NCBI GenBank assembly: GCA_000091205.1 | Contig: AP006491.2 | Length of the DNA: 64,000 nt | Reading direction: 5' to 3' (one strand) | Source: Cyanidioschyzon merolae | Lineage: Eukaryota | Notes under the pieces: model-generated | What the model saw: only the letters and a program-made list of their open reading frames with translations | What the model was told of the DNA's origin: nothing | Databases searched by the model: none | Shown: positions 1,850 to 62,535 of the stretch, in pieces | How the letters are laid out: every line of letters begins with the position of its first letter | How positions within the stretch are numbered: position 1 is the first letter of the stretch | Made by a program: the position numbers and the translations under genes

Positions 1850-3420
1850 CCATGAAGCGGCCGGATACGCAGCATACCGCTGGCACAACATCGATGCAGA
1901 ATGGATCTACGATGCCTTTGCGTGCATCGGCTGCAGACGCTGCTCTGACGGTTACTGGTACGAGACAACGGTCGCGGGTCGGGAATGTATCGTCGCTGCA
2001 CGTTCGAATTTCTGCGGGTGCTTTTCTATCTACTCGTCTCAAGGACGACGTCGACGACACCCGCGTTAGAATGAGATTCGGGCGAGTCTATGTTTTGCAA
2101 TCTCGGGCGCTCTCGCTCAAGTATTCGTTCTTCTCACGTACGTCAACGCAAGCTTTCGGGGCTTGCTTTGCGACCGCTTTTCATCCCTCTGTCCTATGTC
2201 AGGCTCAAAACATACGACGGAATCTCTTTTGCTGTCAGTACTGGTGCCGGGAGTCGAAGCACATTGATGATGGTGGCGTTCGAGTCCCGATTTCGCAATT
2301 TCCGGCTGCTGTCGATGCATTGCATGCACAAGCAGAAGTTGTGATCGATACTCCACTTGTCGTTTTCATCTTCTTCGTATCCAACATCGGTGCGCCCTTC
2401 GAATCGTTAACACTTGAACATGGTCAGGTGTTCTTCTAGATCCATCACATTCCTCGTTCGAGGGCAGCTCTGTGGCATGTGAACGCTAGCTCAATCACCC
2501 GGTACATGCCCGTGACAGGTCGAGGAGGCTCCCCTCGATGCGCTCCTCAGGTTCGACGCCCGCTGCCGTACCAAATGATCAGGGGTTTGTTTCGCGCAAT
2601 GCCCTCGGTGAGTGCTCTGTCCGCCGCACACGCATGCGCAAACCGTTCGTTTCGATAGAGGATTTGTTGAACGCAATGCTGTCCATGAAGAAAAAAGTAC
2701 CAGACGGAAAAACCGGGCCGGAGATCAAGTCGAGCAACTTGGATCCGTTCACGCTCCCGTCGCGCAAAGCGGTGACGAATGCTCCACTGGAAGCGATCGC
2801 TGTGATGTCTCAGGTCCGAGTCCACGGTCGTAGTCGATGGACACTGCGGAGACGGGGGCGTCGCGTAGCATATCCCATGAGAAGTATCATGGTAAATTGG
2901 AATGCCGTTTCGTCGATGGTCATAGAGATGGGTAGAGTTGTCATTTGGCCCGAATTGATTACTTGAAGCACGAAAGTCAGGGAACTTTCGGCATGCGTTT
3001 CTAATGCATTCGCCAGCGGACATCGTCGACCGGGTTCTCAAATCCATCGAGCGGCGCGAATGGCTGCACCCACGAGAATCGCCTCGAAACAGAGAGATCT
3101 ACTATTCGAAGCATGCATGATTTGCACATCCTGCATCTAAGAAAACGAGAAGAATAGAAGCTTGTATGTATGCAGTGCAAAATTGCGATATCGTTCGTTT
3201 TATGAACCCTTGTTCGTAGGCTTCGCATATCGTCATGACTCCGGTGACGAAACGAATTCCTGCGGCGATGCGTCGAGAGCGTCACTCCGAAAACACGACC
3301 TCGAATCCTTATACGACGTATGAATCCTTAGGGTCTTATGGCTGCACCTCGAACATCGACGCTGCCTATTTACAAAATCTCGAAATGCAGGATCAGAGCA
3401 CGTTCTTTCGTGTTCGGTTT
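1850..3420 (+). repeat. Copy 1 of a dispersed AT-rich repeat family (~1.3-1.6 kb), arbitrary + orientation, with a tRNA/B-box-like segment near 2780-2830
   Basis: By-eye alignment shows blocks of similarity to 42100-43480 (reverse), 56900-57900 (reverse), 23540-24400 (reverse) and 62180-62535. Examples: ccactggaagcgatcgctgtgatgtctcaggtccgagtcc against the reverse complement of 42747-42790, and ...ccttagggtcttatggctgcacctcgaacatcgacgctgcc against 62440-62480. GC content is visibly lower than in flanking genes. Confidence 0.6.
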
Positions 3421-4307
3421 TCATCTATCCCTTGTGCGGCGTTTTGCTGTCGTCAGCGAACGAGTCGAGCGCGTCGAAGCGTACGCGTACGCACTCGCGC
3501 CTGGAGCCACGGTGAGCTCGCCCGGCTCTGGTACCGGCAGCGGTTGGACGCACTGTCTCCAAGACTAGTTCGACGTCGAGTCTGGCACTGATGCGAAGCG
3601 CTCACTCTCCAAGTGCACGACTTTTAGCAGACGCAGCAGCAGTTGCTGTTGAACCATCCAAACCCCTACCCCAATACTACAGTAGCGTCTCAGATGCTGA
3701 GGCAGACGTCATGAGGCACACATCCGCGCGTCAGCTCCACTGGTTCCGTTCGCAAGCGCCGCTCGCGTAACACGGTGCACCACACATATTTCGGAAGAAC
3801 GTCCCTTTGTCTCGTAGCGTTCACGACAGCCGCCCTGCTCTGCGCCTGCCACCCGACGCGTCACGCCTCACACCAGTGTACGCTCGTGCGCGTCATTCAC
3901 AGCCCAAATACAGCGCCTATTGCGACACCAGGCACAAAAGCAAACAGAGTGAACATCGTATGCATCAGTAGCAGGCTGGCTGGCTGGCAGGCAGGCTGGC
4001 TGGCTGCCCCCTGTCCCATACAACCTGCTGCAGGGCGCGGGCGGCGATCCGTCGGCCGAATTAGGCGAGGGATCGATCCCGCGATCCAGAGATCGCTGCA
4101 CGTGTTGATCCGCAGGTAGCCAGGGGCACAGCGCGCCACAGCCGTCCATTGCTGAGCCGTGCCCTGCCGACTGACATGCCGCTCGAGTCGTCGACAAAAG
4201 GCGCCCGCAGGTGCGCCGCGTCAATCCGGCAGGGCACTGCTCAGCTGCAGCTCACATTTTCTCTTCAACGTTGCTGTTTCTCGACGGCTGCTGCTGGGCG
4301 GGTGCGG

Positions 4308-5828
4308 ATGCTCGCGTCCAGAGCTTTTCATAGCATATCTCCGGAAGAAGGAAAAAGTCCTCGCTCTCGTGGACTGCGACGTGCATCCTCTTGGAACCGG
4401 CGGGGTGTACTGTGGCTCGTTGCGATCGCTTTTTTTGGAACAGGATTTCTTCTGGGTCTGCTGTGTGCGCCGAGCGTGTCACCGTTTCGGCGTTTCGGGG
4501 CGGAAAGCGTCGATTCAAGTACAGACGCGGTGGACCAAGAGAGAGCGCACGTCCAGGGTCGTCGAGACCTATCGGAGGCAGGCACGTCCGGGCGCTCTGC
4601 TGTGGAGGTTGTTGCGGCGGCGCTGCTGGCAACCCAGAACCCGACAGACTGCGCCAAGGCCCGATACCTGATTGTAGACGAGTTTTCCGATCAGCATGGA
4701 CTTGGTTTCAGTCTGATCACGGTGTTCAAGTTCCTTTATGTTGCGCATGTCGAACGGCGCGTTCTGCTGCTCCTGCCGTCATTCACGTCTTACCCGTGGC
4801 GTTGGTGTCATTGGCCGCCTGCATCGTACGGTTGCTATTTCGAGGACGTCACGTACTGCGCAACGCGGATGCAGTTCGACCAGGCGCTCCGCGACCGCGT
4901 CATTCCACGGAACTGGAGCGCGATCCCCGACTGGAAGGGCATCGAATCCATCGATGAACGGGTGGTGATTTTCCGACAAAAATATCTCTCGCGTGCCCGG
5001 ATCGAAAGTCGCGCAATCTACCAGGCCTGGAGCATGTTCGAGCACGCCTTTGGCAGCGGACTCAAGAAATACGGGCGATTCTTCTACTACGCTGTTGCGC
5101 AGCGCGTGCTGCTGCAACCCAAGGTTTGGTTGGAGCACGCTGCGCTTACCCAACGCGAGCGCTGGAGTCTAGAGCAGAACAACCCGCTCGTGGTCGTGCA
5201 TGCTCGACACGGAAGCAAACACATCGAGCAAAAGCATATCCCGGTTTCGGAGTTGGCTGCGAGCGCGCTTGCTTTTTGTGAGTGCCTCGGCGTGCGCGAC
5301 ATTTTACTGATCACCGAGACCGAGCGCGTCATTGTCGACTTCAAACGAGCCGTGCAGCATGCACCAGTGCGCGTCCTCTACACAGAGTATTGGCGCCCAG
5401 AAGGCGATGTCTGGAACAAGAATCTGGTGGGTCAGCTCAAGCTGAAACCCGTGAACGATTCCGTGATCGACGTCATCGCGTACCATTCGATTCTGAATCT
5501 GCTGTTGGCTCGGACAGGCGTGGCTTTTGTGGGCACCATCCAGTCTGCCTTTTTGAAGTTGCTAGTGAGCACCGCATATGCGCACCAGAAAGCACCAGTC
5601 AGTATCCATAGCTTGCGCGCTGGATGGCGAATCAGGGACGGGTACCCTGCAGCGGATGCCAAGTACTGGAGTTTCGACCCGTGCCGCTTACCACATCCAT
5701 GTGAACACGTGGCGCTACCCTGCTCCAAAAACGGGAAGGGATTTCCAAGGCGAAGCATGAGTCAAGCAACCGACTTTTCGACGCGACCGGCCGATATCGA
5801 CCACGAGCCGTCGCAGCTGCACGAATGA
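4308..5828 (+). CDS. GT23-family (alpha-1,6-fucosyltransferase FUT8/NodZ-like) type II membrane glycosyltransferase
   Basis: The ORF is 4149..5828; the likely start is the ATG at 4308 (MLASRAF...). A signal-anchor VLWLVAIAFFGTGFLLGLLCA is present. Motif layout CAKARYLIVDEF..GLGFSL..RVLLL and VVVHARHGSKH matches the conserved FUT8/NodZ motifs (..GxG..H, HVRRTDK-like). Confidence 0.7.
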   Translation: MLASRAFHSISPEEGKSPRSRGLRRASSWNRRGVLWLVAIAFFGTGFLLGLLCAPSVSPFRRFGAESVDSSTDAVDQERAHVQGRRDLSEAGTSGRSAVEVVAAALLATQNPTDCAKARYLIVDEFSDQHGLGFSLITVFKFLYVAHVERRVLLLLPSFTSYPWRWCHWPPASYGCYFEDVTYCATRMQFDQALRDRVIPRNWSAIPDWKGIESIDERVVIFRQKYLSRARIESRAIYQAWSMFEHAFGSGLKKYGRFFYYAVAQRVLLQPKVWLEHAALTQRERWSLEQNNPLVVVHARHGSKHIEQKHIPVSELAASALAFCECLGVRDILLITETERVIVDFKRAVQHAPVRVLYTEYWRPEGDVWNKNLVGQLKLKPVNDSVIDVIAYHSILNLLLARTGVAFVGTIQSAFLKLLVSTAYAHQKAPVSIHSLRAGWRIRDGYPAADAKYWSFDPCRLPHPCEHVALPCSKNGKGFPRRSMSQATDFSTRPADIDHEPSQLHE

Positions 5829-6549
5829 GCTGGGGAAGCGGCTGCATAGCCAATGCCGCGACGCGTGCCTTGCGCGGATGCGCCGGCACCCGTCGTGAGC
5901 GGCCTCTGTGCAAGTCACCCGGACCGCGCTCCAGGTAGCAGCAAACGGTGCCCGATACCCCGTTGCGCTGACAAGCCTGGATGCTGGGCAACGACGCAGG
6001 TATACACGGCCGTAGGCACAGGGATGCTGGCGATCGCGTCGTTTCGCGGCGCTTTGCGATCACGTCACCGGCCTGCGTTGGTGTCCGCGGCACCGTGACG
6101 CCACCTGGATGTATCGTTCCCGCGTCCTGACACCCAGGGCACTCGACTCGAGTCCCCGCAGCGCTGATTCGTTTGTGCTCCAGACAATCCGACCACGAGT
6201 AGCAGCGCTGGAGAGATGGAAAGCGCTGTTGGGCGACGCAATGGCGTACTGCTGCTCCTGATCCCATATCTCTGCATCCGTACGCTTCGACAGAGGCGAG
6301 CGCGTCTCTTTGATAGCGGTAATGGGCGTGTACAGTCCAGCGTGATTTAAACTCGAGTTTATAGTCGCAACGCAGATGCATGCGATAGGTGATCGTTGCG
6401 GACGAAATCCGCCGCACCAGCCGCCTTGCCTGGGAGCAGACGCTCGACAGCAACACTACTTGATCACCGTTACGAGGACGCACAAGACGATCCTGTTAAT
6501 CAACGTCGACGTCGTCGCATGACCCCACTCGGTACTCCATGTCAGCGTC

Positions 6550-8583
6550 CTATTCCTCGTCGTCGTTGCCGCGTGGGGTGGTGGTGTGAGCCGCCCGCTC
6601 ACTACCCGGCGTTTTGCCTTTTCGCTTCGCTTTGCGCTCCGTATCGGGAGTCGGTGCGCCGTCCGCGAAAAAGTAGTTTCCGCTAGCCTTTTGCTCCTGA
6701 TCCTTCACGGAGCCATGCTTATTTATCCGAGGTCGCAGATTCGTGGGATCTCGGCGGAACGTGATATCGAGGGCGCGCAAAAACCGATTCATCCCGCTCA
6801 CGAGCGGCTCCGGTGATCGAGCGACGGCTTTGCGAGCTGGCTCGCCTTCGTAGACGATCACTCGATCGGCCAGGTACGTGGCCATGATAAAATCGTGCTC
6901 CACAATAAACGCCGTCTTTTTCGAGTGCAGGATAAATCGCTTGATCACTTTCGCAGCGATGATACGCTGCTCCGAGTCCAGATACGCCGACGGCTCGTCC
7001 AAAAGGTACAGGTCAGCGGGCTTGCCCAGCGCCAACACCAACGCAACCCGTTGGAGTTCACCGCCTGACAGGTGCTTCACTTCCTGATCGAAGAGTTTGT
7101 CCACGGATAACGGCTTCAAAACGTCAGTTTGGAATTGCGGATGTGTGTATGCACTCTGAATTCGCTTGTGCAGAAGCTGCTGCACAGTGCCTTCAAACGA
7201 CGGGGATATCTTCTGCGGCTTGTACGATACATTCAGTTGCGGGATCTCGATGTGTTTCTCGGGATCCGATAGATCGGGATCGGGTTGCAACAGACCCGCG
7301 AGAACGCGAATGAGGGTTGTTTTGCCAGTGCCATTGCGTCCCAGTGCAAGTACGATTTCCGAGTCAGTAAACTCTCCCCGCTCGACATCAAGCACAAAGG
7401 TGCCCAGCGTCTTCCGAAAAGCCGGGTACCCATATCGTCTTTGCTTCTCTGCATCTGCAGCGGCATCAGGCGTCTCGGCACCCTCTGCGATCTTAAAGGT
7501 AAGTTCGGTTTCCCGGAATCGCATGTTTTCCGTCGGTACGAAACCCGCGAGAAATACATTGATGCCCTCCCGCACGGAGAACGGATACGTCACGACACCG
7601 TACGCACCCGGCACGCCGTATAGGACGCAGATGTAATCGGAGAGATAATCTAGCACAGCAAGGTCATGTTCGACGACGAGCACGTAGTTGTCGGTACGAC
7701 ACAGGGAGCGAATGGCTCGGGCGGCTCGCAGACGCTGTCGCACGTCGAGGTACGATGAGGGTTCGTCAAACATGTACGCGTCGGCGCGCTGGAGGCACAC
7801 CATCGCTATCGCGAAGCGCTGCAGTTCACCGCCAGAGAGTTGCGAAACGTCGCGATCGAGCACCTCTTCCAGGTCAAGCATATCGATAACCTCCGCAAGG
7901 CGCTCGGTCTCGTTGCGAGCCGCGAGCAGATCGCGGACCCTGCCTTTCACCGCTTTCGGAATATGGTCTACGTATTGCGGCTTGATCACTGCGCGCAACT
8001 CTTCGCGGAGTATCTTTTCGAAATAGTTTTGCAGCTCGCTTCCCCGAAAGTAGCGAAGTATTTCCGGCCAGTCCGGAGGATTCTTGTAGTTTCCAAGGTT
8101 AGGTTTCAGTTTCGCCGCCAGAATTTTCAACGCTGTCGATTTTCCTTGGCCGTTGCCGCCGACGAGCCCGAGAACCTGGCCGGGGCGCGGCATTGGTAGT
8201 CGGTGCAGCTTAAAAGAGTTTGCCGAGTAGCGGTGCGTCGTCTGCGAGTCCAGATCGGTTGGTAGATTGATGATCTGAATCGCACCAAACGGGCACTTGC
8301 GCACGCAAATTCCACAACCGATGCAGAGTGACTCGGAGATGAGCGCAATGGGCGAGCTTGGCATCACTTCGATGCATAACTTACCGATTCGGTTCACTGG
8401 ACAAGAGCGTTTGCACTCCAGCGCGCACTTACGGGGTTTACAGCGGTCAGCCGACACGATCGCGATGCGAGTCAACTTTTCCTCACCGTTGGTGGAGGAA
8501 GAGGTGGTGGTGGTTGCGGCGGCTGTGGAGTTGGTGCTACTAGCCCCGGCACCGCCACCTGGTCCGCGCTTTCCTGGAGGCAT
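6550..8583 (-). CDS. ABCE1: ABCE1 (RNase L inhibitor / Rli1) with Fe-S domain and twin ABC cassettes, carrying low-complexity N- and C-terminal extensions
   Basis: [29 protein letters not shown]...[22 protein letters not shown] (4Fe-4S), two Walker A sites ([18 protein letters not shown]), two LSGGELQR signatures, and the C-terminus [23 protein letters not shown]. The ORF extends upstream to 8817. The Met at 8583 (MPPGKRG...) is the closest plausible start. Confidence 0.9.
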
Positions 8584-13728: not shown

Positions 13729-14673
13729 AATTTGAGTTGCGGCCACGGCGCGCTACACGCTTTCCAGAGTCGGTAGCGAGCGTTCTCAGCATGGACTGAG
13801 GTGACTGCGTCCAAGCTGATGTCGCTTTGCAGTTCGCGGAGCTTGTGCGATGGCCCCGGTGGGCCTCACAGAGAAGACGGCGGGAGAGTCGATGTTGGCA
13901 GGCCAGTGCGCGGCGCGAAAAACCGCCACCTGGACGGGGATGACGCTAGACGCTGCGCCCTGCACCGCATGCTGGCAGATCGGGTACCCGCTGGGGATTC
14001 AGGGTTCGCACTGAGCATCATTCGTTGGACAAGGAGCGCCGACTTGTGTCATGGGGCACGTTTCGCCCCGAACGATGCCGCGCTCCGTTGCTAGGTTTCT
14101 GTTTTAAAGCATCAAGAAACGGTCGGAACGAGAAACTCGTGACGACGCGTGGGTAGTTGACCGACACGAGCCCCTTAGCTGCCGCGCGGTTCGCGTCGAA
14201 GCCGCCCGTTCCAGAACCGAGTGCCGCCATCGACCAGAGCAGAAAACCTCGCAGGCTTTCGGGGATAAGCGCACCGTTGCGCCACCGTCGGCGCTTGTCT
14301 TCGTCAGCGTCAGAGCAGTGAATTCCGGAATGCCTGTGTTAGCACGCCCTTTTTGCCGTTGCATGTCTCGTGCGCAGATTCCAACACCATGAATGAATCC
14401 TCTGGAGGGCCGCAGAGAGACTGCGTGTTATCACTGCTAGCTTGCGCAAAATGCTCGCACGTGTGCAAGTCAGTTTTTCCACGGGCAGCACGTGGATCAG
14501 TCGCCATGCTTGTAGCGCTCATGTGGAACGTCAAGCACCGAAAACGAAACGTACCCAACAGTTTCTATACGACTGTATGCTCGTCAAATCATCCGGCTCC
14601 CTATGTTCTTCGATGAAACACTGTAAAAGATGCCGCAAGATCTTGAGGTTCCGTACTGTAGACAGGACCGGCA

Positions 14674-15300
14674 ATGAAGAAACATAGACAGACAAAAGGA
14701 AAAGCGCGCGTCTGCCGGAGAACGCCGCGCGTTGAACGACGCATGATCAGTTCCGTCCTGAAAAGCGAACGCCTGTTATCGAAGGGCCTGGTGGTCATCT
14801 CAAGCGATGAGACTCGATTCAGCGGAAATAGTAGACCTGAATACGGGTACCCACAGAAGAGCAGACCGCACATCCTTAAAAGTGCCCAGCGAGCATTCCG
14901 TCAAAATCAGTCCCAGCGGCGATTCAATCTTGTAGATGGGTGCAAATCACCAAACGGGCAGGATTCTTTGAGATCGCATCTTTCATTGAATCACCTTGTC
15001 GTCGCTCTTTCCCTTATTCTTCTGTTCTGCTGCCAGATAACTTTCCAACATTCAACTGCGGCTGCAGAACACGCAGCTGAGCTCGGCAACGAGCTGCTCT
15101 TCGTGTCAACTGCTTCTCCCTGGTCCAATCCAGTCGAAGCCGTCTTCGCTGGTGTCAAACGCCATTTATACGCTAACCGATCAACAGATAAGTCGTTCTC
15201 TACCCTCACCAGCCCTGTAGTGCTGTTTATCTCCACTGTTCTTGCGCAGGCGGGAGCGGAAAGACCCGCTCCACACTGTGGGCATACTCATCACGTTGAG
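14674..15300 (+). mobile_element. Degenerate Tc1/mariner-superfamily DDE transposase relic (pseudogene)
   Basis: Translation of 14674.. contains GLVVISSDETRFSGNSRPEYGYPQKSRP.. (compare Tc1 WSDESKFELFGS..Y..RRPGE) and ..LLFVSTASPWSNPVEAVFAGVKRHLYANRSTD (compare Tc1 LEWPAQSPDLNPIENLW.ELKRAV.ARRPTN). The central DND motif is mutated (CCQITFQHST). No intact catalytic triad, and TIRs were not found by eye. Confidence 0.5.
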
Positions 15301-17060
15301 AGTGAAGAAAGGCACTGGAGTATTGATAGGCACAAACGCGCATCGAAGAGGCGAGCTTTGGAAACACCGTCCATCCAGTACGTCCGAACCCCGAGGGAAG
15401 ACACAAGTACAGAGTATACCAACCAAAACAATACATCCCAGCCAAGTAGAGGAGAGGGCGAAGGAGCTGGTCTCTGTAACCAAGCACGAAGCATTCGAGC
15501 AACACCGCGAGTAGCATTGGCAGAACTGGTTCAAGGTCTCTCGTTTACAGTGACGATGGAGACAGACACGATATGCATCTGCTTGCACTGGGTGAACCAT
15601 TCTCCTGAAATGAGCAAATCGATTCATGTTCAAATGCTCCCGGTACATGAAGACGGAGACTTGTCGATGAGCGTAGATTCCGGCTAAAAAAGGCGTCATG
15701 GCCGTCGTCGTATCCCCAAATGAAGAGGACTGAGCCACAGACTTGGATGGTGAGCAGATGAAGCGGCTCAGCAATTCCAGGAATCCGTGGTACAGTCTGT
15801 CGGGCATGATGAACCCCGGGAGACATTCCACCACTTCGAATGACGGCGACAGGACCCGCTCGCCGTTCTCGGGCCTCTGAACATCGCATCGAACAGGATT
15901 GGATGCTTTATATGCTTTTGTCGGCGGGTAAAGTAATGGATCATATAGATGATCTTCGGTCGGCGTCCATGAAGCCACACGTATGTCGGCGACAGTTTCA
16001 GTCGTCCAGAGGCCAGCAGCGTGCAGTCGTCAATGTCTTGCATGCAATGAATAAGAAAACGACCGAAAAGTCGTATCGTTTCCTGGTAGCATATGGCGCT
16101 GGACGTGCCGTAGCGCGCAAGGGCTGCACTCCTGCTCCGCCCGGACCAGAGCATTTAAGGTGTGTAGGAAAGGATTCTTTACGATTCCAACCGAACCGCT
16201 CAGGATGACATGTGCGCATCACGAGCACGAGTACAAGCAGAGACTCGTAAAGAGAAAGCAGATGAAACAGCGCGGGGTGCCTTTTGTGGTATACGGTGCG
16301 CTCACCGAACGTCAGATGGAAGGCCAGTCACAGCGGAGAGGCCTGCCCTGCAGCGATTCCGCCAGCAACCGTGCGCGCACGCATCTACCGCTTCGAGATT
16401 TGAACGCCCCGAGCAGCGTTGGGAAACGCCTTGGAATTCCGAAGTATCCAGCTGCTCTACCTCAAGCGAACTTTCCATGGCATCGTTTAGGACTCCATGC
16501 AGGCATCGTACTGAATCACCGAAGACTTTCGATGGAAACAACTCAGTCGCAAGTGGGGACAGGGCTGGATGCTCGCGTGCAGCTCGGCACTCGAATGCCA
16601 CAATCCAGCAATGCATCGAGGCTGGAGTGCTGCACGCAAGGATCTACACAGGGAACAATGGCCCGGTGCACTTGATCAGACATCATCGTGTCCGACAATT
16701 CGATACGTTTGCGTATGTGCGTCGACCGTTGCCGTAAATGGATTATATACGCGTCTTGATGACAAGCTGACGCATGTTGTCCAGATGCAGGTCGAGATGC
16801 CTGCTCGCGAATCCCGATATGTCTCTACCGTTGACGCCGTGGCAAGCGCGCCTCCGCAGCGATGCACGGATGCTGCGTGTGCGTGGCACGCATCCGTCAC
16901 GTGACATCATCCGTGTATCGCGGTGCGTGGCAGCACTCTGTGGACACGACGACGCGGGATGCACATGCATCCCGGCGTTTGCTTCGGATGTCTATAGAGC
17001 GTCCGTTTTTTTCGTCTTTTATCGATAGGTGAGTCTGGATCGGATGCTGAACCTGGGCCT

Positions 17061-18044: not shown

Positions 18045-18134
18045 ACGTCCAACCGAATCCGAGGAGCGTGCACCACCACCGGAAGGCGCACCAGTAGCGG
18101 TCTCGTTGCGCGTAGCACCAGCGGGGGTATCCCC

Positions 18135-21115: not shown

Positions 21116-21392
21116 AGGGAAACCCGCTGCTACACCACAGCGCTTTGGGGTCATCGCATCGATGAGAACGCACCCTTACCTCGACGGGAAACCCGCTGCT
21201 ACACCAGAGCGCTTTGGGGTCATCGTATCGATGAGAACGCACCCTCACCTCGACGGGAAACCCGCTGCTACACCACAGCGCTACGGGGTCATCGTATCGA
21301 TGACAACGCACCCTCACCTCGACGGGAAACCCGCTGCTACACCACAGCGCTTTGGGGTCATCGCATCGATGAGAACGCACCCTCACCTCGAC
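21116..21392. repeat. 69-bp tandem repeat, 4 near-identical units
   Basis: gggaaacccgctgctacaccacagcgctttggggtcatcgcatcgatgagaacgcaccctcacctcgac repeated 4x with single-base variants. It lies in the intergenic space between the divergent aminopeptidase (-) and the 21920 gene (+). Confidence 0.85.
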
Positions 21393-26668: not shown

Positions 26669-26899
26669 GAGGCGCTTTCAGGGCGCTACACGTGAAACGC
26701 CGTACATGCACAAGTGCGTGCATGGACGACGGACTGCAAGCGGAACGTGTATCCGACACGAATGCTTGCACCGCCCGCAAAGATACAAAAACACATAAGG
26801 TGCAGTGTAAAAGGCATGGGTACAAACCTCTATCCTCAGGCGAATCGCAAATCGCTACAAGCAGCTCGGGCATTGTGTATCAGAAACAGTTAGTGGCTC

Positions 26900-38571: not shown

Positions 38572-38608
<37 letters not shown>

Positions 38609-43480: not shown

Positions 43481-43829
43481 GAGCGTGTGTGCGCGAGTTG
43501 GACGACCTGCTCTTCTCTATTCTGGCATTGGTGTCATTTACGAATACCCGTCGCTTTTGTACATGAAAAACGGATGATTCGTGTACTTATGACTTCAATT
43601 CCCTAGTTGCCACCAGAGCAACGTCCATCAATGAACCCAGCGGGGAACGTCAACTTCCGAGCGCTTGTACCGCAACCTCCACGGTCGGCAGCACGATGTG
43701 CACGCGAGTCGATACGCGCTCCCAGTGCATACATTCAAGGACTCCATTGCATCAATGAACTACCGTACACGATCCGTACGCTTCGTGTGAACAAACCAGA
43801 CGCGTAATGAGTCCGGGCCTGTGTCAGCG

Positions 43830-49000: not shown

Positions 49001-50837
49001 ATCCATCGGACACGGTGACAGCACTCGGCGATATGCCCAAGGCGGATGCAACTGACGCAGACAGAGCAAGCGATGCGGACGAGCATGAAGCCTCAGTTCG
49101 AACAGAGAGGAAGGCGCGCCCAACAATGGACGTCGTAGCGGGTGTTGGTGATGTTGACGGTGCAGGCGTGCTTGTCGCGTTGCTCACAACAGGCGTCGAT
49201 GATACAGAAGGCGACGGTGCAGGCGTGCTTGTCGCGTTGCTCACAACAGGCGTCGATGATACAGATGGCGACGGTGCAGGCGTGCTTGTCGTGTTGCTCA
49301 CAACAGGCGTCGATGATACAGATGGTAGAGGCGTAGGCGTGCTTGTCGCATTGCTCACAACAGGCGTCGATGATACAGAAGGCGACGGTGCAGGCGTGCT
49401 TGTCGTGTTGCTCACAGCAGGCGTCGATGATACAGATGGTAGAGGCGTAGGCGTGCTTGTCGCGTTGCTCACAACAGGCGTCGATGATACAGATGGCGAC
49501 GGTGCAGGCGTGCTTGTCGTGTTGCTCACAACAGGCGTCGATGATACAGAAGGCGACGGTGCAGGCGTGCTTGTCGCGTTGCTCACAACAGGCGTCGATG
49601 ATACAGAAGGCGACGGTGCAGGCGTGCTTGTCGCGTTGCTCACAACAGGCGTCGATGATACAGAAGGCGACGGTGCAGGCGTGCTTGTCGCGTTGCTCAC
49701 AACAGGCGTCGATGATACAGATGGTAGAGGCGTAGGCGTGGGCGTGGGCGTGGGCGTCGGTGTTGGCGTAGGTGTCGGTGTTGGCGTAGGTGTCGGTGTT
49801 GGCGTAGGCGTCGGTGTCGGCGTAGGTGTCGGCGTAGGTGTCGGCGTAGGTGTCGGCGTAGGTGTCGGCGTAGGTGTCGGCGTAGGTGTCGGCGTAGGTG
49901 TCGGTGTCGGCGTAGGTGTCGGTGTCGGCGTAGGTGTCGGTGTTGGCGTAGGAGTAGGCGTAGGTGTCGGTGTTGGCGTAGGAGTAGGCGTAGGCGTCGG
50001 TGTTGGCGTTGGCGTTGGCGTTGCCCGACGGGTAGACGTCATTGCCGGTGTTGAAGAGGCAAGCGAATCTACAAGGCTGTTTCCATGAATGTAACTATCT
50101 CGCGGCCGAGACGTCGGTGTCGCAGAGCCTGTCCCTGAACTCGTTAAACTTGGTGTGAAAATCGCACTCCCACTGTTTGAGCTAATTCCCGTTCCTGTGG
50201 ATGATGCAGAAGCGGAACTAGTCGCGGTATTCACGCCGAAGCTGGGCGATGGTTGCAAAATAGGCTGAACAGTAGGTCCTGTTGTGTGCTGCGTATTCGG
50301 TGATGGTGATGGAGTTGGTGTAGGAGACGGTAACGGTGTCGGTGTAGGCGTCGGTGTAGGTGTAGGTGTAGGTGTAGGTGTAGGCGACCTCATAGGTGTT
50401 GGCGTCAGCGCTACCGTGGGTGTGCTCAGCGCCGGTGTCGAGACGGGACCGGGCGTCGAACTAGTTATGCTGGTTGGTGGCCCAGACACCGCTGAAACCC
50501 CAGAGTCCGTCGAGGTGCCACTCCCGCCTGTCGACGCAGCAGTGCTCGTCCCTGTAGATGTAGGTCCCGTGAAGCTGGTGCCACTACTGCTACTGTCAGT
50601 GAGGCCACCAGGCCCAGAGTTACGCCCGCCCAAAGCAGGACGCAGCATCTCGAACCAGTCGCGTTCCTCGAGTGACACATGGTCACTTTGCGAGGGTGCC
50701 TGTCGCGGACCCGCCGCGCTTGCGCAAGCCCGAATCGGTCCCCAAACTAGCGAAAGCAATAATAATAAAGATAGAACAAGAAAAATTAACGTTCCATATC
50801 TTGATCCTCTCATCGTGCGTAAAGTGCCTTCATTCAT
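46017..50837 (-). CDS. Giant mucin-like type I membrane glycoprotein B (paralog of 34807..38856): signal peptide, S/T/P repeats, conserved ~900-aa Cys-containing domain, EGF-like module, TM helix and polybasic stop-transfer
   Basis: [25 protein letters not shown] (signal). (TP)n tracts and 19-aa [19 protein letters not shown] repeats. The core is paralogous to mucin A. The EGF-like module is [69 protein letters not shown] is followed by [13 protein letters not shown]. The 3' boundary is undefined: no in-frame stop before the Sec1 ATG at 46016. Confidence 0.75.
49140..49740. repeat. 57-bp coding minisatellite (~10.5 units) inside mucin B, encoding 19-aa [13 protein letters not shown](A/T)TSTPA repeats
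   Basis: gatgatacaga(a/t)ggcgacggtgcaggcgtgcttgtcg(c/t)gttgctcacaacaggcgtc recurs with period 57 (starts at 49198, 49255, 49312 ...). Confidence 0.9.
49741..50040. repeat. Hexamer (GGCGTG/GGTGTC/GGCGTA)n array encoding (TP)n of mucin B; begins with the G-quadruplex-type run (GGGCGT)4
   Basis: ggcgtgggcgtgggcgtgggcgtcggtgttggcgtaggtgtcgg... seen directly. A further short array lies at 50290-50400. Confidence 0.85.
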
Positions 50838-52381: not shown

Positions 52382-53533
52382 TCAGCTTCCGTATTGACTG
52401 GGATCCACCTCGCCGTGCTTCAGAGCAGCGTAGGGCGCCGGGTCCCCGCGATGCGCTTTAATGAGGTTAGCGCGCAAGTGATTCACATCCCGGTGGTGCG
52501 CCTCATCTGCGCGCGTCGCCAGGACGACGTCCCGTAAACGCGCATTCGGGTCCAGCTGCCAATAGTCAATCGCAATGGGTGGCGCGGGAATATTCGGGAT
52601 GCGGCCGTCGTCGATGTCCTTCAAATATTCCGTGTAGGATACAATCGCCTCCTCTTCGAGATAACCAACCAATCGATGTGCGGTCTTTGGTGATATTGTG
52701 TACAGCAATGTATAGAAACTGAAAAAGCCAGCCTGGGCGAGGATCACGAGCGCGCGCTCCAGCGCCCTTGGTTGTGCAATCGACATGTAAACCATGAGGT
52801 GCATACGCTCGTTTTCGGCCTCCTCGAGCAAGACTCGAATCCAGCCGCCAGACTGACGGAAACGACGCAGGCACTGCAGATGGAGCATCATGCCACCTAC
52901 CATACCAGGAACGGCTGCAACGGTCTCGAGCACAACTGCACGGTGGCCATAACGTCTTTGGAAGAAGGCATCGGCAAAAAAGCGCAGAAACTTCACCGTA
53001 TAGTATGCAAAGCGGTCACTAAATCCTGTTGGTTGCACGTGTCGCTTCAGATCGACGTTCAAGTTTGGTTTATAGGTGTGCTCGGGCAGGAAGCTGTGCC
53101 ACTTCCACGGGTAGTTCGGGTCGCTCTTGGGCGGTGCGTCTCTAACTGGCTGGTATGGTGTCTCGTCCGGCCTTCCAGTCGCGTCGGTTATTGTTGTTGT
53201 TGAAGACGTATCTGGCTGTGGCTGTGTACTAAGCGCCCGCGCACCCGTGCGCCAAAGAGGGGCGGCGGCAAGCCCAACTGGTGGCAAACGAGGTTCCGAC
53301 TCCCGCACACCTCTCGCGGTATAGGTTGCGCTCCAGGTAGTTAAAGACTTGGAACTCAGGCAACCAGCTAGTGACCAGTCTCGACAAGGCAAGTGCGGAG
53401 CATTTCCCGGAACGTTGCGCCACAGCCCCTGCTGACGCGCTAGCAAGTCGCCCACTCCGGTGGCGCGCACAGCCCGTCCAACTACTCTACAGTAAATACT
53501 CGTGACTTTCGGCACAATCCCTGCACAGACCAT
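52382..53533 (-). CDS. AOX: Mitochondrial alternative oxidase (AOX), di-iron carboxylate protein
   Basis: All four iron-binding motifs are present in order: [52 protein letters not shown]. The N-terminal ~140 aa are presequence-like. Confidence 0.92.
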
Positions 53534-54453: not shown

Positions 54454-55125
54454 ATGCGAAGAGAACTCCTGGAGGCCACCGCTGGTCAGCCACTAGTTTC
54501 TAAAGACTCATCAAATCGAGCCTCATGTTCGTACCCGTGGTTTTTGAGAAAAAGAAAAGTAGGATTCATGCCGGCCGCGTTCATCGTAGGCAACTGCTCA
54601 CGAACCTGGCACTCGGTGCTCGCTGCGCGACGCACCTCTACGATGAACTCTTTTCTAGGTAAAAGCAGCCCAGTGCTGCGACGCAGCATGCGCTTCAGGC
54701 TGGCCCTTGGGGCAGGCGGCGGTCGGAGCCTGTGCGTGAGGTCGAACTGCGAGGGACGAGCTCGACCCGGCGAACCCGAGCCGCCAGACTACGGCAAACA
54801 GTCCAAGGGGCCTGGTGGAAGCAATATCCCAGGAAGCGGCAGACCTGAGGAGCTCCCCGAAGAGGATCGGCCGCCGAGCTTTGAAGAGCAGTCTCCATAT
54901 GAGTTGACTCTGTCGCAGCAGCTGCTTCTTCAGCAATACATCGCGGAAATTGAGCAAACTAGCGCAGAGACCTGCCGTGAAATGTGCGCGGCCATCATGT
55001 CGCAGATGATGATGAAAGAGAATTTGATTAAGGAGCTCTTGGGGCGTGACGACATCCAGTTTCCGCCGATGCCCCAAATTCCGGGCTCTGATGATCCACC
55101 GCTCGATAGCGGGCCGAGGCGGTAA
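54454..55125 (+). CDS. Hypothetical protein; likely true start at internal Met (MNSFLGKSSPVLRRSMRFRLALG, presequence-like)
   Basis: ORF with basic N-terminus, Pro/Glu-rich middle and conserved-looking C-terminal helix YELTLSQQLLLQQYIAEIEQTSAETCREMCAAIMSQMMMKENLIKELLG. No family recognised. Confidence 0.25.
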   Translation: MRRELLEATAGQPLVSKDSSNRASCSYPWFLRKRKVGFMPAAFIVGNCSRTWHSVLAARRTSTMNSFLGKSSPVLRRSMRFRLALGAGGGRSLCVRSNCEGRARPGEPEPPDYGKQSKGPGGSNIPGSGRPEELPEEDRPPSFEEQSPYELTLSQQLLLQQYIAEIEQTSAETCREMCAAIMSQMMMKENLIKELLGRDDIQFPPMPQIPGSDDPPLDSGPRR

Positions 55126-56899
55126 CATCTATGCTTGGAACTGTCGTTCGCGTTATTCGGGCCTTAATCCAGCATGCGCAAGGATAGCATCACCAGGGAA
55201 CCGGGGTTTGCTACCTCGTCAGTACCTGCTCGAACCGAAACGCTTCGTCGTATGTGTAGAAGTGGCATGGATTTTTCGTGCATACGGCTCGACCGCTGTA
55301 GATGCGATCCTATTCCTGGTGCCCGCAGTTTCGCACAGGTCTACGAGACGGAAAGCACCATAAAACATTTCGAGTTTTGAGGTGTCACCGCACGCAGCGA
55401 TCACGCACCGGGCACGCGGTATTTTGGAAAGCACAACAACGCTGCGCGTTGTTGGTTTCACTGGAAAACTTGAACTGCACGAGGGTGCACATGAACGGTC
55501 AAGTAGCGTGGCATGGATGCAGGCGCTAGCAGGCCATTCCGCCTTGAGAAAGGTATGCGGGAGGAATCATTGCATAGGTTCGAGCTCATTGCAAGCTTCA
55601 CGTGAAGCGCACATTCCAGCAGTTTTGCGCTGAATCACGCCAGTATCGCACGATATCCCAGCCGCTGCTTCGTACCGCACACAGGCCTCTGTGATGAAGC
55701 GTTGCAACTTTTTGATGAAAAAGCGATTCTGTCTCTGGGGTAGGTTTTGTCGGAATATATACAGGCGTCCACCGCGTGGGAACTGTAGATTTTTGCGCTG
55801 CGATGGCCCCGGGTGCGCGTGCATCTGAGAATTCCTGCGGAAAAATTGCGGGACACTGCAAAGCTCCGCTGCAGAAAGCTCCACGCTTTTCGTTTCTTGC
55901 AACTCGTCCAGAAAAGGGATGCCGCTGAGCACGTAGCCAAGCTGGACGACAATACATGGATATACTGCAGAATGTTTCCGTGCTCTCCACCGCGTCCGGA
56001 AAGATGCTTCAGAGCCGGGCGCATACGGAAACGTGTGCTCATTCTTTACCAGTAGAAGAGCAGAATCGATTAGGTTTCTGTGAATTACCAGGAATGGACA
56101 TCCCCTGGTGGAAAGACTTTATTGCAACGCCCGCAATGAGTAGCAAAGACATTGGTTTTCGAAATCGTATCAACCCTGCCGTGCTGTTCCATACCAGGTC
56201 ATAGAGAACGCTGCAACGCAAATCGAACATCTCATTCGCGACCTGAATCGTAGCCAAGCGGAAACCGCAACACCCGTCGATATTGATTGAAAAAAGGTGG
56301 GGCCGCGCATTTCAGGGAGAGAACCTCGGGGCCCGCTTCAAGCATTCACTCGCGCTAAACCCAATGTATGCTCTCAGCTGGTGCCCTGGTTCGACCATCT
56401 TGAAGGCCAGCGAACGCAATCATACTTTGCCTCGTGATTGCCCGATGACAAGGCATCTCTGACGGCCTAAAAAAGGCAGTACGGCAGTGGCAGTTTCAGA
56501 TGTAGACCGCCGATTTCTTCCAGAGTCAGCTCCAGGCTGAGCTCGTCTTTCACCGGTGCCCAGATGCACCAGAAATACGTGTCAGCTCCGTTATGTGCAT
56601 TGCCACGAGTAGTTATCAGTTTATTGGTAAACTCGCGCTCAGGAAGGCACGCTCCGAATACGACACAAATGAATAACGTGCCTGCTCGTACGGGGCTCTG
56701 TACCCGTTTCAGATTAACCTGGAACACTGAAGTGCTCGCGCGTGCTCAGTCTTGCGATATTCTCCGTCTTTTTTTTCATATGTACACCCTCGACATTCGC
56801 ATTCCAGAAATAAACGATTATGATTCGTAAATAGTTTCGGGGTTGTCCGTCGGTGTTTCGGAGTCGCCCCTTCCACTCGCTCTAAAGCTAGAATTCAAT

Positions 56900-57900
56900 G
56901 ACATTGCAGGAATCAAGATGATTCGAAACGCTGGCAAACGAGGCTTTGTGAGCTAACGCGAAACACCCTCAAATTCATAACCATATGCATGCACGCTTCT
57001 CTTTTCCCCTCGGGTTGCATGCTGAAATCAGGCATTCTTCACGTTTTCGATCTCCCTGGTTCAAGGCAACTCGAGGTGCAGCAATTTGCACCAATGGATT
57101 GACGACGATCAAAACTCGACCTCGCTGCTCGACAACTTGTTCATGTGCGCATGCGGAAAGTGCGCTGAAGTTGTCACTTCAAATAATCGATTCCGTTCGA
57201 AGGAGAGATGCTCACCCCTTCGTAGCCATCGACGAAGCGGCATTCGAATGCAGCATAATACCTCTGATAGGATACGCTTCTAGAGGCTTCCGTCTCTTCT
57301 GTTTGGATACAGGGCTCTTGGACTCGAACCTGAGTCACTGCAGTGATCGCTTACAGTGGAGACTGCGTCACCGCCGTGCACGGACACAGCGTAGACGATA
57401 CAAAGTTTCTCGACTTGTCCTCCAGCTTGGATTCTCCTGTCGGGGCTCGCTTCATCATGGGCGAGGTTACGAGGCACAAATCTCCTACTGAATGCGACCG
57501 TATGCGCATGCGCGCGCTGTGGATAAAGTACTTGCAGAGGGTATCGTCGCAAAGAAGCCCAGGATATTCGCGTACGGAACAGGACATAGAAAGGGAGGGA
57601 GGCACTGAGGTTCGCCTTCTCTATATGTGAAGGGCATGTAGCGAGCGATGAAGCAAGCTTCTGACGCCTCAAGGCGGTGCTTGGAGGAGGCGCTGTCGTG
57701 GACGTACGGTAATACCCGAACACAGCCAAGTGTTACCGCTGCGAACGGTGCACCGCGGCTGTTTACACAGAAGATTTAAATGGAAAGAGAAGCGTCCACC
57801 CCAGCAATTGTTTGTGCACAAACTGCATTGCCAGCAGCCAAACTCAGTGATACCTGGACAAGAACAACGTCATCAACATCCTGCGACGGCTTACAGCAGA
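56900..57900 (-). repeat. Copy 3 of the dispersed AT-rich repeat family (reverse orientation); carries the best B-box-like match (GGTTCGAGTCC on minus strand near 57320-57330)
   Basis: 57311-57385 aligns with 42741-42815. 56990-57270 aligns with 42400-42700 (cgacaacttgttcatgtgcgcatgc vs cgacgacttgttcacatgctcatgc). 57540-57660 aligns with 43000-43110 (aagggcatgtagcgagcgatgaagca vs aagggcatgtacccagcgatgaagca). Confidence 0.55.
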
Positions 57901-58579
57901 GCTGGAGAGAATGCAGATGCCGGCGTTCGTACAGTCAGAGATTCCGAGTTCAAAGGAAAGCGATCACAGAAACAAGAACACGTGGCTGGTGCTGATGTCA
58001 GTAGAGAGTGACCCAAGCCTTCGATGGTCCACCCAAGGCATCCATTTTTTCCGTGTCGCTGTATTCCAGTCTAGGCATAGGCCAGTTGCGCGTACTCTTG
58101 TTGCTGAACCATACACGTACATCGTTGTCCGCTACGCAGACAGCGCGTGCGTGCGTGCGTGCGTGCATGCGTGCGTGCGTGCCATGCCGTCCGCGATGCG
58201 GAGGCGCATCGCAGCGTGAACTGCTGGACGCGTGCGGCGATCGGAGGCGCTTCCGCCTTCCGCATCCGCACCACTCGCTGCGCCAGTGCTCTGCGAAGAA
58301 GGTTCGTGTTCACCGGCTCACAGCGTGAACGCGTGATCATCGTTTCCAGTCATCATACGTGCAAAGCGTTCGTTCCAGAAAGCTTTAGAAAACGTCGAAA
58401 GCAACAGTAAACCAGACGCACAGTAATTGGGTGCGAAAACGTATGCCCTACTTCGGAAAGCGGTTTCAAAAGAGTTACGTGCACGGAGGCACCGTTGTTT
58501 GAGCACTTGTTCTAGACAGAGCGGTTGCACAATTTTTGCAGCCAGTTATCTAGATAGAACGTAGGCTATTGCGAAAAAG

Positions 58580-60685: not shown

Positions 60686-62179
60686 ACGGCGACACGTGCA
60701 GCGAAACATGAGTATCGTGCTGGCGTTGTGCTGGCGCAATTGGAACGCAAGAATCGACGATTTGAAAGCCGGTATGTGTACTTAAACGTTATTGTGCATT
60801 ATGTTTCCTAGTTCGAACCAGACGCGTCTCATGAGTATCAGGCGCTTTTTCATAAACTGGGTCCCGCTGTGCGGTTTTCTTATCACCTGAAGCTCAGCGG
60901 AATTCTGCATGGCATCAGTCTCGCTTGCCGCAGCAGCAGGCTATGCTCTACTCGCCGCACCTGTGCTTCGTTGCGCATCCCCGGTGACCATGTTCCCCGA
61001 AACAGCACCCAAAGTAGTATCGGGTGGCGAAAGCCACCGGAGTACCGAGAAGTCGATCGACGGAGCTGCGGGTATTTGTACAGCAGCGATCAACGATCTC
61101 TTGCACATGCCTTACAGAATGAGATCATGGAATGTGAAGCGGTCCTTTCGCGTCAACGCTTTTCATCTGCATTCAGACCAACGACAAACAAAAATAGAAC
61201 GATTCCGGTTAGCGTACTCGGGCATAGACTCTAAAATTGGGTCGCTTCCACGGTCATCAACACCAGCCTCTGCGAGCTTTTTCTAAGACGACTACGTATG
61301 CCCCTCCCTGATCTCTGTCTTTACGAAAGCTGGTTTCTCCCGTCGCTCCAGCTTCGTTGTCCGCAGTCGAAGGATGTTCATCACAACGTTAAAGCCCCGA
61401 TCTCGTCGCCTTCGGCTGTTATCGACGCATTTTGACCCGTAGGGAAAAGTTGCGAGCCACCTTCGGCTTGCCGTTCTCCTTTTCTTCGCATACAGCATGG
61501 GAGCGCCATTCGTATCGTTGACACCTGGTTATGTTCAGGTATTCCCATATTAAAGTCCACCAAAACGCCTCCTAGGAGCGCCGCTCTGTGACAAGTGAAA
61601 GCTCGCTTCGTCGCTCGGTACATGCTCTTCATGGGTACAGAAGGCTGGCCTCGATGCGCGCCTCGGTAACCGCGCCTGATGCCGTTCCTTGCGATCACAT
61701 ACTTCTTCAAGCCGATGCATTCGGCGACTGCTCTCTTCGCCGGGTGCGCATGTTCCCGTTATTGCAGGTGCTAAAGCATGTGTGGATCGCGATGTTGTTC
61801 ATGATGAAACAAATGCTGGAATGAAAATCCAGTCTGGAGAGCACGTCGAGAAATCGCAATTCGCCAAGGCTCCGTTCACGCAAACCGGTAACGCAGGCTC
61901 CGTTGGAGGCGATCGCTGCGATCGCTCAAGCCCGAGTCGAAGACCCTTTCCACTCGTACAGAACAGAAGAGAGTGGAGCCTATGGGAACCTATCGTCTGA
62001 AAGGTACCCTGTTGCTTTGGAATACAGTTCCGTCGATGGCCACAAATAGAAAATCTTTTGTCCTTCGAACGGACCTGATTATTTTTATTAGACAATTGCG
62101 GTGAAATTTTGGCATGCACATAGGTAAAAGTCATCGAGGGATAGAGTCGAATGATCTATTTCGCCGTCACTCCAGGAGC

Positions 62180-62535
62180 GCGAACTGATCCACCCACAAG
62201 TTGTCGCCAAACTGAAAGATCGAAGACTTGAAGCATTCGTAATTTGAGCACGATGCAATTCAGCGAAGGGGAATAGCGGAGGATCGTATATTTGAACTGG
62301 ATAATGATATCGGTTATTTTACCAAACCTTTTTCGGGGATGTCGCAAGTCATCTTGATTCCGATCTCGCAAAAGAATCGCAGCGACTTAGAGTCGCAGGA
62401 GCCACTCCGAAAAGACGACCGAGAATCCTAAGGGAATGTACAGACCCGTTAGCCCTTATTGCTGCACTTGGAATGTCGAAGCTGTCCATGCGAAAAATGC
62501 TCGGAAAAATCTCAAGGCAGGAACCGAGCAAGCAA
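62180..62535 (+). repeat. Copy 4 (partial, tail portion) of the dispersed AT-rich repeat family, ~350 bp upstream of the Rae1 start
   Basis: cactccgaaaagacgaccgagaatcctaagggaatgtacagacccgttagcccttattgctgcacttggaatgtcgaagc...caaggcaggaaccgagcaag aligns to 3255-3410 (copy 1) and to the reverse complement of 42180-42330 (copy 2). Confidence 0.5.

Follow-up and report, generated by a model that had tools for sequence, protein, structure and literature searches.

What is the sequence that recurs between genes in the 64-kb stretch of Cyanidioschyzon merolae DNA analysed here (the window, 64,000 nucleotides at its full length)? A first reading of the letters, made without database searches (hereafter, the sequence-only reading), had noticed a family of mutually similar repeats at five intervals, with an internal segment resembling the B box of RNA polymerase III (Pol III) promoters. 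Its candidate identities included a short interspersed element (SINE)-like or other non-autonomous transposable element and a structured non-coding RNA (ncRNA) gene family. We found that the family is an ordinary fossil transposon, and not a tRNA-derived or RNA-gene family. Very probably, the repeats are fossil, non-autonomous, internally deleted derivatives of an IS630/Tc1/mariner-type transposon that carried a Fanzor1 nuclease gene.

Self-BLASTN of the window recovered the five intervals as mutually similar sequences (64-69% identity over 0.4-0.9 kb, E 1e-12 to 1e-46), above the 60% identity that the sequence-only reading had set as its own bar. In a multiple alignment of the copies, similarity was unbroken over ~1.3-1.4 kb with few insertions or deletions, and it dropped sharply outside ~1.38 kb. 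A profile hidden Markov model (HMM) built from 17 copies, run with nhmmer against the window, returned exactly five full-length matches (HMM positions 2-1381 of 1382) and no further family fragments in the window. The intervals first proposed overlap these real copies, while their boundaries had to be redrawn, each copy being ~1.38 kb long by profile HMM. The fifth, described as a partial copy of 355 bp at 62180-62535, is full length. The relative orientations (+, -, -, -, +) had been read correctly; the coding-sense strands are -, +, +, +, -. The copies are listed below with their landmarks (TIR, terminal inverted repeat; D1 and D2, codons of the first and second catalytic Asp; CxxC, zinc-ribbon motif; RD, RuvC-III motif).

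Copy 1, 2057-3437, minus strand (coding sense): full-length nhmmer match, also matched by tblastn of both consensus protein parts; 20% off the 5-copy consensus.
Copy 1, 5' half: 5' TIR ~3433-3410; ATG 3369; D1 2914; shared TGA 2812; D2 2683.
Copy 1, 3' half: junction ~2663; CxxC ~2412; RD ~2289; stop ~2118; 3' TIR ~2082-2058.
Copy 2, 23461-24850, plus strand: full length; the most decayed copy, 27% off the consensus.
Copy 2, 5' half: ATG 23538; D1 23991; ancestral TGA position 24093 (now TAG); D2 24222.
Copy 2, 3' half: junction ~24242; RD ~24620; stop ~24791; 3' TIR ~24824-24848.
Copy 3, 42152-43535, plus strand: full-length nhmmer match.
Copy 3, 5' half: 5' TIR 42157-42180, with TA at 42155-42156 just outside; ATG 42234; D1 42685; TGA 42788; D2 42916.
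Copy 3, 3' half: junction ~42936; CxxC ~43191; RD ~43315; stop ~43481; 3' TIR 43509-43533.
Copy 4, 56699-58079, plus strand: full-length nhmmer match.
Copy 4, 5' half: 5' end TA/CCCGTTTCAGATT at ~56702-56727; ATG 56780; D1 57231; TGA 57331; D2 57460.
Copy 4, 3' half: junction ~57480; CxxC ~57731; RD ~57854; stop ~58021; 3' TIR 58053-58077, with TA at 58078-58079 immediately outside.
Copy 5, 61189-62567, minus strand: full-length nhmmer match, also recovered by self-BLASTN and tblastn.
Copy 5, 5' half: 5' TIR ~62563-62540; ATG 62489; D1 62034; TGA 61928; D2 61799.
Copy 5, 3' half: junction ~61779; CxxC ~61523; RD ~61399; stop ~61233; 3' TIR ~61205-61176.

Copies beyond the window came from metagenome contigs, which were scanned with a peptide pattern taken from the alignment of the window copies. 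The scan returned 37 loci that fell into 16 similarity clusters and represented 17 distinct copies, one cluster holding two copies (L004 and L018) at different positions on one contig. Five of the 17 are the window's own: an 83-kb contig that is collinear with it carries them at ~99% identity. The other 12 lie elsewhere. Obtained with a single peptide pattern derived from the window copies, the 17 are a biased lower bound and are uninformative on clustering. L004 and L018, ~14 kb apart on contig Ga0080006_1125477, are ~98% identical and have different 3' flanks, and one of the two is 5'-truncated, beginning at transposase residue ~148; the pair suggests that an old copy was duplicated locally, or underwent gene conversion, not long ago. 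At another locus, L006, a coding stretch with the Fanzor RuvC-III motif (...DLNAAINI...) lies ~30 nt upstream of locus position 2483 and abuts a 5'-truncated copy, which suggests a nested or rearranged element pair.

The consensus of the 17 copies revealed what the family once encoded. A first consensus of five copies and its profile had found no match in a search of 5.8 billion proteins or in the PDB, while the 17-copy consensus did. Its 5' 0.8 kb holds, in one frame, ~235 codons of an IS630/Tc1/mariner-type transposase that starts at an ATG ~80 nt inside the 5' end. This frame carries the motifs MYSLDIRSAAIRAY, FVAIDETAF (with the first catalytic Asp), GYAPRGSRL, AAIASSG and FIMDNIAFHKS (with the second). 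Pfam DDE_3 matched it with 40.7 bits (cutoff 28.6) over profile positions 3-117 of 146. The NCBIfam IS630-family transposase profile matched over positions 20-238 of 299, with 63.2 bits (E 2.6e-17). This falls short of the cutoff of 100 that NCBIfam sets for the whole protein, which a truncated consensus would not be expected to reach. Matches to N-terminal helix-turn-helix (HTH) domains were weak and sub-threshold, and fell in the expected place (HTH_33, E 0.0024; HTH_Tnp_Tc3_2, E 0.0057; HTH_32, E 0.028), a region that is also covered by the alignments with the NCBIfam IS630 profile and with P0020, a relative described below. A third catalytic D/E, which a complete triad has ~34-39 residues past the second D, is absent, the homology stopping at position 117 of 146 in DDE_3 and 238 of 299 in IS630. 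As judged from the consensus, such an incomplete triad would fit a deleted derivative rather than an autonomous member. One string, YSPRASP (YSPxxxP), resembles a third catalytic motif of the type YSPxLNPxE. It is probably a chance match, as the same bases read in the other frame are strongly homologous to Fanzor (17 of 27 residues identical to P0019, also described below).

The 3' 0.6 kb of the consensus, which begins at nt ~1102 and closes with a stop codon ~50 nt short of the 3' end, is read in a different frame. It encodes the C-terminal ~180 residues of a Fanzor1/TnpB-like nuclease (ILYRMEQRALACAADRVLAEGIAQKKPVIVGYGTGRGNGGGHRGEPSVPVKGMYRAMKQAF...VVDIREHLTTVKCHRCEG...RLCMKC...NRDLNAAINILR). 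It matched Pfam PF07282 (Cas12f1-like TNB, formerly OrfB_Zn_ribbon) with 31.1 bits (cutoff 26.3), and NCBIfam guided_TnpB at the C-terminus of that profile. Bao and Jurka (2013) defined a Fanzor/TnpB motif, [TS][TS]-x-x-C4 finger-x(5,50)-RD (PMC3627910), which this frame carries as TTVK-CHRC...CMKC...NRD, the consensus reading ...EHLTTVKCHRCEG...RLCMKC...NRDLNAAINIL. The Fanzor half is also collinear with published Fanzor1 C-termini from the VxVGYG motif onwards (CRe-1, 38 bits; PUl-1, 33; CVu-1, 32; CMe-1, 26), and the transposase half matches the mariner transposase of PUl-1 with 35 bits (sequences from the supplement of PMC3627910). Only the ~180 C-terminal residues are kept, and the RuvC-I/II region is absent. 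A complete Fanzor1, by comparison, has an upstream catalytic D 125-275 residues before the finger, a RuvC-II motif and a length of ~550-900 aa, none of which the element has. An assignment by eye of the whole element to TnpB (RFRSKDK and LQPGFSFRYLF, frame 0) was rejected: only the C-terminal TNB/RuvC-III part matched Pfam and NCBIfam, and the upstream similarity was not significant.

Where the two halves meet, homology to the transposase stops directly past the second Asp (about residue 227 of the 307 in P0020), and homology to Fanzor sets in at about residue 536 of the 712 in P0019. This junction is best explained by a parent of ~3.2-3.6 kb with two genes, a DD35E-type transposase and, downstream of it, Fanzor1. 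An internal deletion of ~2 kb would have taken out the part of the transposase beyond its second catalytic Asp, the intergenic spacer and about the first three-quarters of Fanzor, leaving ~235 transposase codons fused, out of frame, to the final ~180 codons of Fanzor. Such a deletion in a two-gene parent would leave ~1.4 kb, the size that is observed.

Relatives of each half were found separately. In a database search with the stitched consensus, no protein spanned both halves besides ORFs (open reading frames) on decayed copies; two such ORFs, P0016 and P0017, come from further decayed copies of the element. P0020, the closest intact transposase, has 307 aa (PF01498 and PF13358, DD35E) and begins MYSLDLRNTAIRLY. 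It is 31% identical to the transposase frame over 265 aligned positions (P0020 residues 1-252; shuffle z 28), and both start MYSLD(I/L)R. It is encoded at 110-1033 of 3.3-kb contigs, in which an ORF of 636 aa with PF07282 follows on the same strand at 1126-3036, an arrangement shared with published mariner-Fanzor1 elements such as PUl-1. These contigs (ENA metagenome ERZ1426603 and ERZ1426850) are known from their proteins and layout. This two-gene element is like the predicted parent in its ~3.3-kb size and its transposase-then-Fanzor layout; its transposase being only 31% identical, it counts as a relative rather than the parent. For the 3' frame, two Fanzor1-like proteins from JGI metagenomes, P0018 (551 aa) and P0019 (712 aa), have C-termini 48% identical to it over 161 aa, and their DNA is 72-76% identical to the element over 127 bp. 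At L039, the end of the P0019 gene is followed by a TIR-like GTTCCATTTTTTCCTA (8353-8368), and an extra Fanzor C-terminal fragment lies just upstream of the gene (5488-5844). These closest intact Fanzor1-like genes (P0019 at L039 6001-8370, P0018 at L040 5001-6656) have viral-looking neighbours, namely Peptidase_S74 fibre-like proteins (one of 2625 aa), an RNA ligase, a 2H phosphoesterase, a UvrD helicase and ATG8, a context that suggests a large DNA virus or a virus-derived region.

The termini are those of a DNA transposon that targets TA. When 5' ends were aligned with the reverse complements of 3' ends (16-17 copies), an imperfect TIR of ~25 bp appeared, with the core CAGA(T/A)TAAAATGGAAC. 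The 5' end reads ...CCCGTGTCAGATTAAAATGGAAC; its counterpart, the 3' end in reverse complement, is CACCCATGCCAGAATAAAATGGAAC. The TIR surfaced only on aligning all ends, and inverted-repeat scans of single copies gave chance pairs only. A 15-bp inverted pair at copy 5 (61115/62594) was discarded, as it lies outside the element. Directly outside the 3' terminus, TA is found in 7 of 16 copies, compared with a TA background of 3.0% (binomial P = 2e-7), and most of the other copies are one substitution away from TA at this flank. TA at the 5' side is seen in few copies only (window copies 3 and 4, and L029). The flanks point to a TA target-site duplication (TSD).

The founder of the family was already defective. 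At one transposase codon, TGA stands in 9 of the 17 copies and in the consensus, with TGG in one copy. To read across the junction, moreover, the consensus and most of the copies need a change of frame. A natural gene family encoding a transposase-Fanzor fusion (a DNA-binding and partial RNase-H part with a zinc-ribbon/RuvC-III tail), once functional and now pseudogenized, would account for the composite frame nearly filling the element, from the ATG ~80 nt from the 5' end to the stop ~50 nt from the 3' end, and for copy 2, which has both parts in one frame. We consider this highly unlikely given the frame change elsewhere and the in-frame TGA of the founder. In addition, the product would have no third catalytic residue and neither RuvC-I nor RuvC-II, making either active site impossible; database proteins cover one half each, except for ORFs on decayed copies; and the relatives keep the two genes separate. 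For the internally deleted transposon, in contrast, an in-frame TGA and an out-of-frame junction mean that the founder would have encoded neither protein, which argues that it was mobilized by a transposase supplied in trans. By analogy with the biology of the superfamily, this transposase would bind the ~25-bp TIRs, excise the element and reinsert it at TA with duplication of the TA. In the full-length parent, Fanzor was presumably an RNA-guided nuclease favouring retention of the transposon, as is thought for Fanzor/TnpB.

After insertion, the copies decayed neutrally. In tblastx comparisons between window copies, scores were equal in all six frames, and substitutions were as frequent in one codon phase as in another (0.400, 0.395 and 0.391), without a three-base period, excluding the copies as coding paralogues. 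The long ORFs that lie within copies (2547-3047, 56985-57491, 1852-2439 and 41815-42282) had no Pfam match. Thus, the copies themselves are not under coding selection, and the coding origin is visible only in consensus sequences: the reverse-strand consensus has a nearly open frame with a Pfam DDE_3 match above the curated cutoff. The earlier description of DNA conserved in shifting frames, and hence not coding, therefore holds for the copies and fails for their reconstructed ancestor. The window copies differ from the 5-copy consensus by 20-27%, and divergence between copies is even along the whole element, with no conserved sub-block. The copies had also been described as AT-richer islands, which is right in direction and modest in size (50.3% G+C inside the five copies versus 57.0% in the rest of the window). 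Comparing the five copies with their consensus, we found no excess of CpA (of the repeat-induced point mutation, RIP, type) or CpG changes, and transitions were symmetric. These results, and a consensus that is itself 51.5% GC, rule out RIP- or methylation-driven AT enrichment; the mild AT-richness is the element's own and does not stem from a mutational defence.

Could the copies have been kept by selection as exapted intergenic modules near gene starts, such as promoters, insulators or long non-coding RNA genes? Several copies do stand 0.1-0.5 kb in front of ORFs: an HPPD-like ORF (start 24951) begins ~100 bp past the end of copy 2, and a GT11 fucosyltransferase-like ORF (58580) ~500 bp past that of copy 4. 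Moreover, the five copies persist at ~99% identity in environmental populations, and another C. merolae repeat family is reported to be transcribed (Nozaki et al. 2007, PMC1955436). Selection on a module is at odds with the even divergence and with the variable orientation of the copies relative to neighbouring genes. The environmental identity is comparable for elements and immediate flanks taken together (segments of 1.8-1.9 kb), and the intergenic location is what purifying selection against genic insertions would produce in a compact genome. We therefore regard exaptation as very unlikely. All copies are probably inert now, and their setting would reflect a compact C. merolae genome in which only intergenic insertions persisted.

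The B-box-like segment remained to be explained. The strings exist: GGTTCGAGTCC at 57320-57330 (copy 4, minus strand), GGTCCGAGTCC at 2813-2823 (copy 1) and AGTCCGAGTCC at 42777-42787 (copy 3). The sequence-only reading had assigned GGTTCGAGTCC to copy 3, whereas it belongs to copy 4. The adjacent palindrome that it noted, CACTGCAGTG (57336-57345), occurs in this one copy only. On the coding strand, the strings read GGACTCG(A/G)ACC and are followed directly by TGA. At the site in copy 4, GGACTCGAACC-TGA-GTCACTGCAGTG gives the codons ...W-T-R-T-stop-V-T-A-V of the transposase remnant. The exact GGTTCGAGTCC is found in 2 of the 17 copies (copy 4 and L034), and L037 keeps its first 9 bases only. 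From its sequence context, then, the apparent B box is a chance string beside the TGA inside the transposase remnant.

A SINE-like element transcribed by Pol III, or a structured ncRNA gene family, with the GGTTCGAGTCC block as internal B box, would be in keeping with B-box-like 11-mers in three window copies and with the intergenic position of the copies. A tRNA-derived SINE has a tRNA-related head with A and B boxes, a length of ~80-500 bp, an A-rich or simple-repeat tail and TSDs of variable length. The element, at 1.38 kb, is bounded by TIRs and flanked by TA, and it lacks a poly(A) or simple-repeat tail, an A box and an acceptor complement. The 11-mer is not conserved over the 17 copies and stands beside an ancestral TGA among transposase-homologous codons. 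ARAGORN found no tRNA genes, in agreement with the earlier statement that the segment is not a tRNA gene, and no Rfam family reached its gathering score. The 3' 258 nt of the consensus, which were also inspected for a guide (omega) RNA, fold no better than dinucleotide shuffles (z = -1.3). Hence, a SINE or ncRNA family is extremely unlikely. Among the candidate identities first offered, the non-autonomous transposable element stands; the SINE-like, tRNA/B-box-like and structured ncRNA readings are unsupported in view of ARAGORN, Rfam, the TIRs, the TA flanks and the coding consensus. An ordinary explanation replaces what might have been a novel ncRNA or SINE.

Several observations weigh against an internally deleted transposon, or at least against its simplest form. 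The 5' terminus is poorly defined, being uncertain by 2-3 nt, and the distance from TA to the CAGAT core varies from 7 to 9 nt. DNA of a full-length parent of precisely this family was not recovered, so that we infer the deletion from architecture and not from an observed breakpoint. P0018 and P0019 are full-length solo Fanzor genes that have no transposase upstream. In addition, the Fanzor frame is free of stops over the ~155 codons that precede the homology (consensus nt 636-1101; 57010-57480 in copy 4), overlapping the transposase frame, which a simple deletion leaves unexplained. This openness is marginal under a null that preserves dinucleotides (p ~0.02-0.03); a codon shuffle overstated it because the genome avoids TpA. 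The frame upstream of nt 1102 has a weak collinear similarity to upstream regions of Fanzor that is not significant (z ~2). Chance together with TpA avoidance is probably the explanation of the open codons.

An unlikely variant would give the retained parts a role, either as a 'guide-only' satellite that borrowed both transposase and Fanzor in trans or as a hybrid protein in which the ~155 codons were dual-coding or recoded. Guide RNAs of Fanzor and TnpB are normally encoded at the 3' or right end. The family has kept its transposon ends and the 3' (right) end of Fanzor, which makes the spread of a guide-only satellite conceivable. If true, the satellite or hybrid would tie the unclassified Fanzor1 repeats of C. 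merolae to IS630/Tc1-type mobilization, with possible seeding from large DNA viruses of Cyanidiales.

All copies are intergenic, and their neighbours are ordinary nuclear genes: ABCE1, an M24 aminopeptidase/cyclophilin, the HPPD-like dioxygenase, MRS2, Sec1, AOX, an NblA-like protein, the GT11-like transferase, ribosomal L24 and MARVEL-domain proteins. The AOX ORF (52382-53533) matches BAM79973.1/XP_005536259.1 of C. merolae 10D (810-kb chromosome) residue for residue. Copy 3 lies ~300 bp past the 3' end of the Sec1/mucin-like ORF (43830-50837, minus strand; Pfam Sec1). The 13-kb Sec1/mucin-like/AOX block had been placed between copies 2 and 3; it actually lies between copies 3 and 4, which have the same orientation around it. 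These two copies are only ~65% identical and have their own termini each, and are therefore independent insertions, with no sign of a composite unit.

Some of the neighbouring features deserve mention in their own right.

54454-55125, plus strand: ORF that encodes an NblA domain (phycobilisome degradation protein; Pfam, 28.7 bits, cutoff 25), placed in nuclear DNA between AOX and copy 4.
17061-20315, minus strand: one ORF of 1084 aa with a complete Xaa-Pro aminopeptidase (Creatinase_N, Peptidase_M24, M24_C) and a C-terminal cyclophilin domain.
21117-21393 and 26299-26673: near-perfect tandem repeats with periods of 69 bp and 123 bp, respectively.
37420-37701, 38040-38606 and 49150-50410: coding repeat arrays in two very long ORFs (34807-38856 and 43830-50837). 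The arrays of the two ORFs are ~75% alike, which makes them one repeat module common to both 'mucin-like' genes.

C. merolae is often cited as nearly transposon-free, with eight class II elements and 0.7% of the genome. In the 64-kb window, 10.8% of the DNA belongs to the five fossil class II copies, and twelve more came from a single biased peptide probe. The content of old DNA transposons is thus likely under-annotated. The family could also help to classify the abundant unclassified Fanzor1 repeats of C. merolae and to trace the exchange of Fanzor genes between algae and their viruses.

How does the family compare with the elements already described? No description of a Tc1/mariner family in C. 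merolae was found in the searchable literature, a search that left out Repbase and Dfam, where it may already be catalogued. Nozaki et al. (2007) listed eight class II elements in C. merolae with weak similarity to bacterial transposases, giving neither description nor coordinates (PMC1955436). An IS630-like remnant would give just such weak matches, and the eight may be members of this family, namely its best-preserved ones; the family itself has at least 17 copies, five of them in 64 kb.

The known Fanzor1 repeat of the same genome is CMe-1A, with ~150 copies of 3169 bp and no TIRs, TSDs or transposase (PMC3627910). Nozaki et al. (2007, PMC1955436) reported a 3.2-kb element of 253 copies, which is apparently identical with CMe-1A/TE-N2_CMe, judging from size, copy number and a WSSV link. 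A fragment of this abundant Fanzor1/TE-N2 repeat lies in the window at 31668-31915 (minus strand), where 248 bp match the first 245 bp of the CMe-1A consensus (81% identity, E 8e-63), a 5' part common to TE-N2_CMe. The window further holds a second, single-copy relic with the same transposase-Fanzor1 order at 14600-16700 (plus strand), in an AT-richer island of 52-54% GC. Its ORF at 14674-15687 carries the motifs SSDETRF...ASPWSNPVEAVF and matches DDE_3 positions 89-140 of 146, the part with the third catalytic residue, with 25.8 bits, just under the cutoff. Next to it, at 15544-16474, come the decayed remains of a Fanzor1 that resembles CMe-1 most closely (residues ~374-697, tblastn E 6e-13). 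This relic at 14.6-16.5 kb has no DNA similarity to the five-copy family.

Might the five copies be truncated members of CMe-1A (~3.2 kb, 150-253 copies)? Both families inhabit one genome, are of similar age (~80% identity to consensus) and decay, and contain Fanzor1-type sequence with its C-terminal motif. In CMe-1A, however, the zinc finger is degenerate, and TIRs, TSDs and a transposase are lacking (PMC3627910); the five-copy family has a zinc finger, TIRs, TSDs and transposase sequence. The 3169-bp CMe-1A consensus has no detectable DNA similarity to that of the element (best blastn E 0.5), and among the Fanzor1 proteins matched, CMe-1 scores lowest (26 bits, 23% identity) and is without the CxxC pairs of the element. 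The probability of such a common identity is negligible.

The transposon with an internal deletion finds its counterpart in the mariner-Fanzor1 elements described by Bao and Jurka (2013), for example PUl-1 of Pythium ultimum, which is 3620 bp long with 24-bp TIRs and a TA TSD and encodes a mariner-type transposase followed by a Fanzor1 of 802 aa (PMC3627910). The order and strand of transposase and Fanzor1, the TA target and the TIRs of ~25 bp are alike. In contrast to the 3.6 kb of PUl-1, the element is 1.38 kb long, with ~2 kb of the middle gone, both ORFs truncated and out of frame, and all copies decayed. Sequence identity is only 23-26%, indicating a different lineage, and the host is a red alga, of another phylum. 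The family thus adds a red-algal example of the association between mariner and Fanzor1, with recognizable TIRs and TA flanks.

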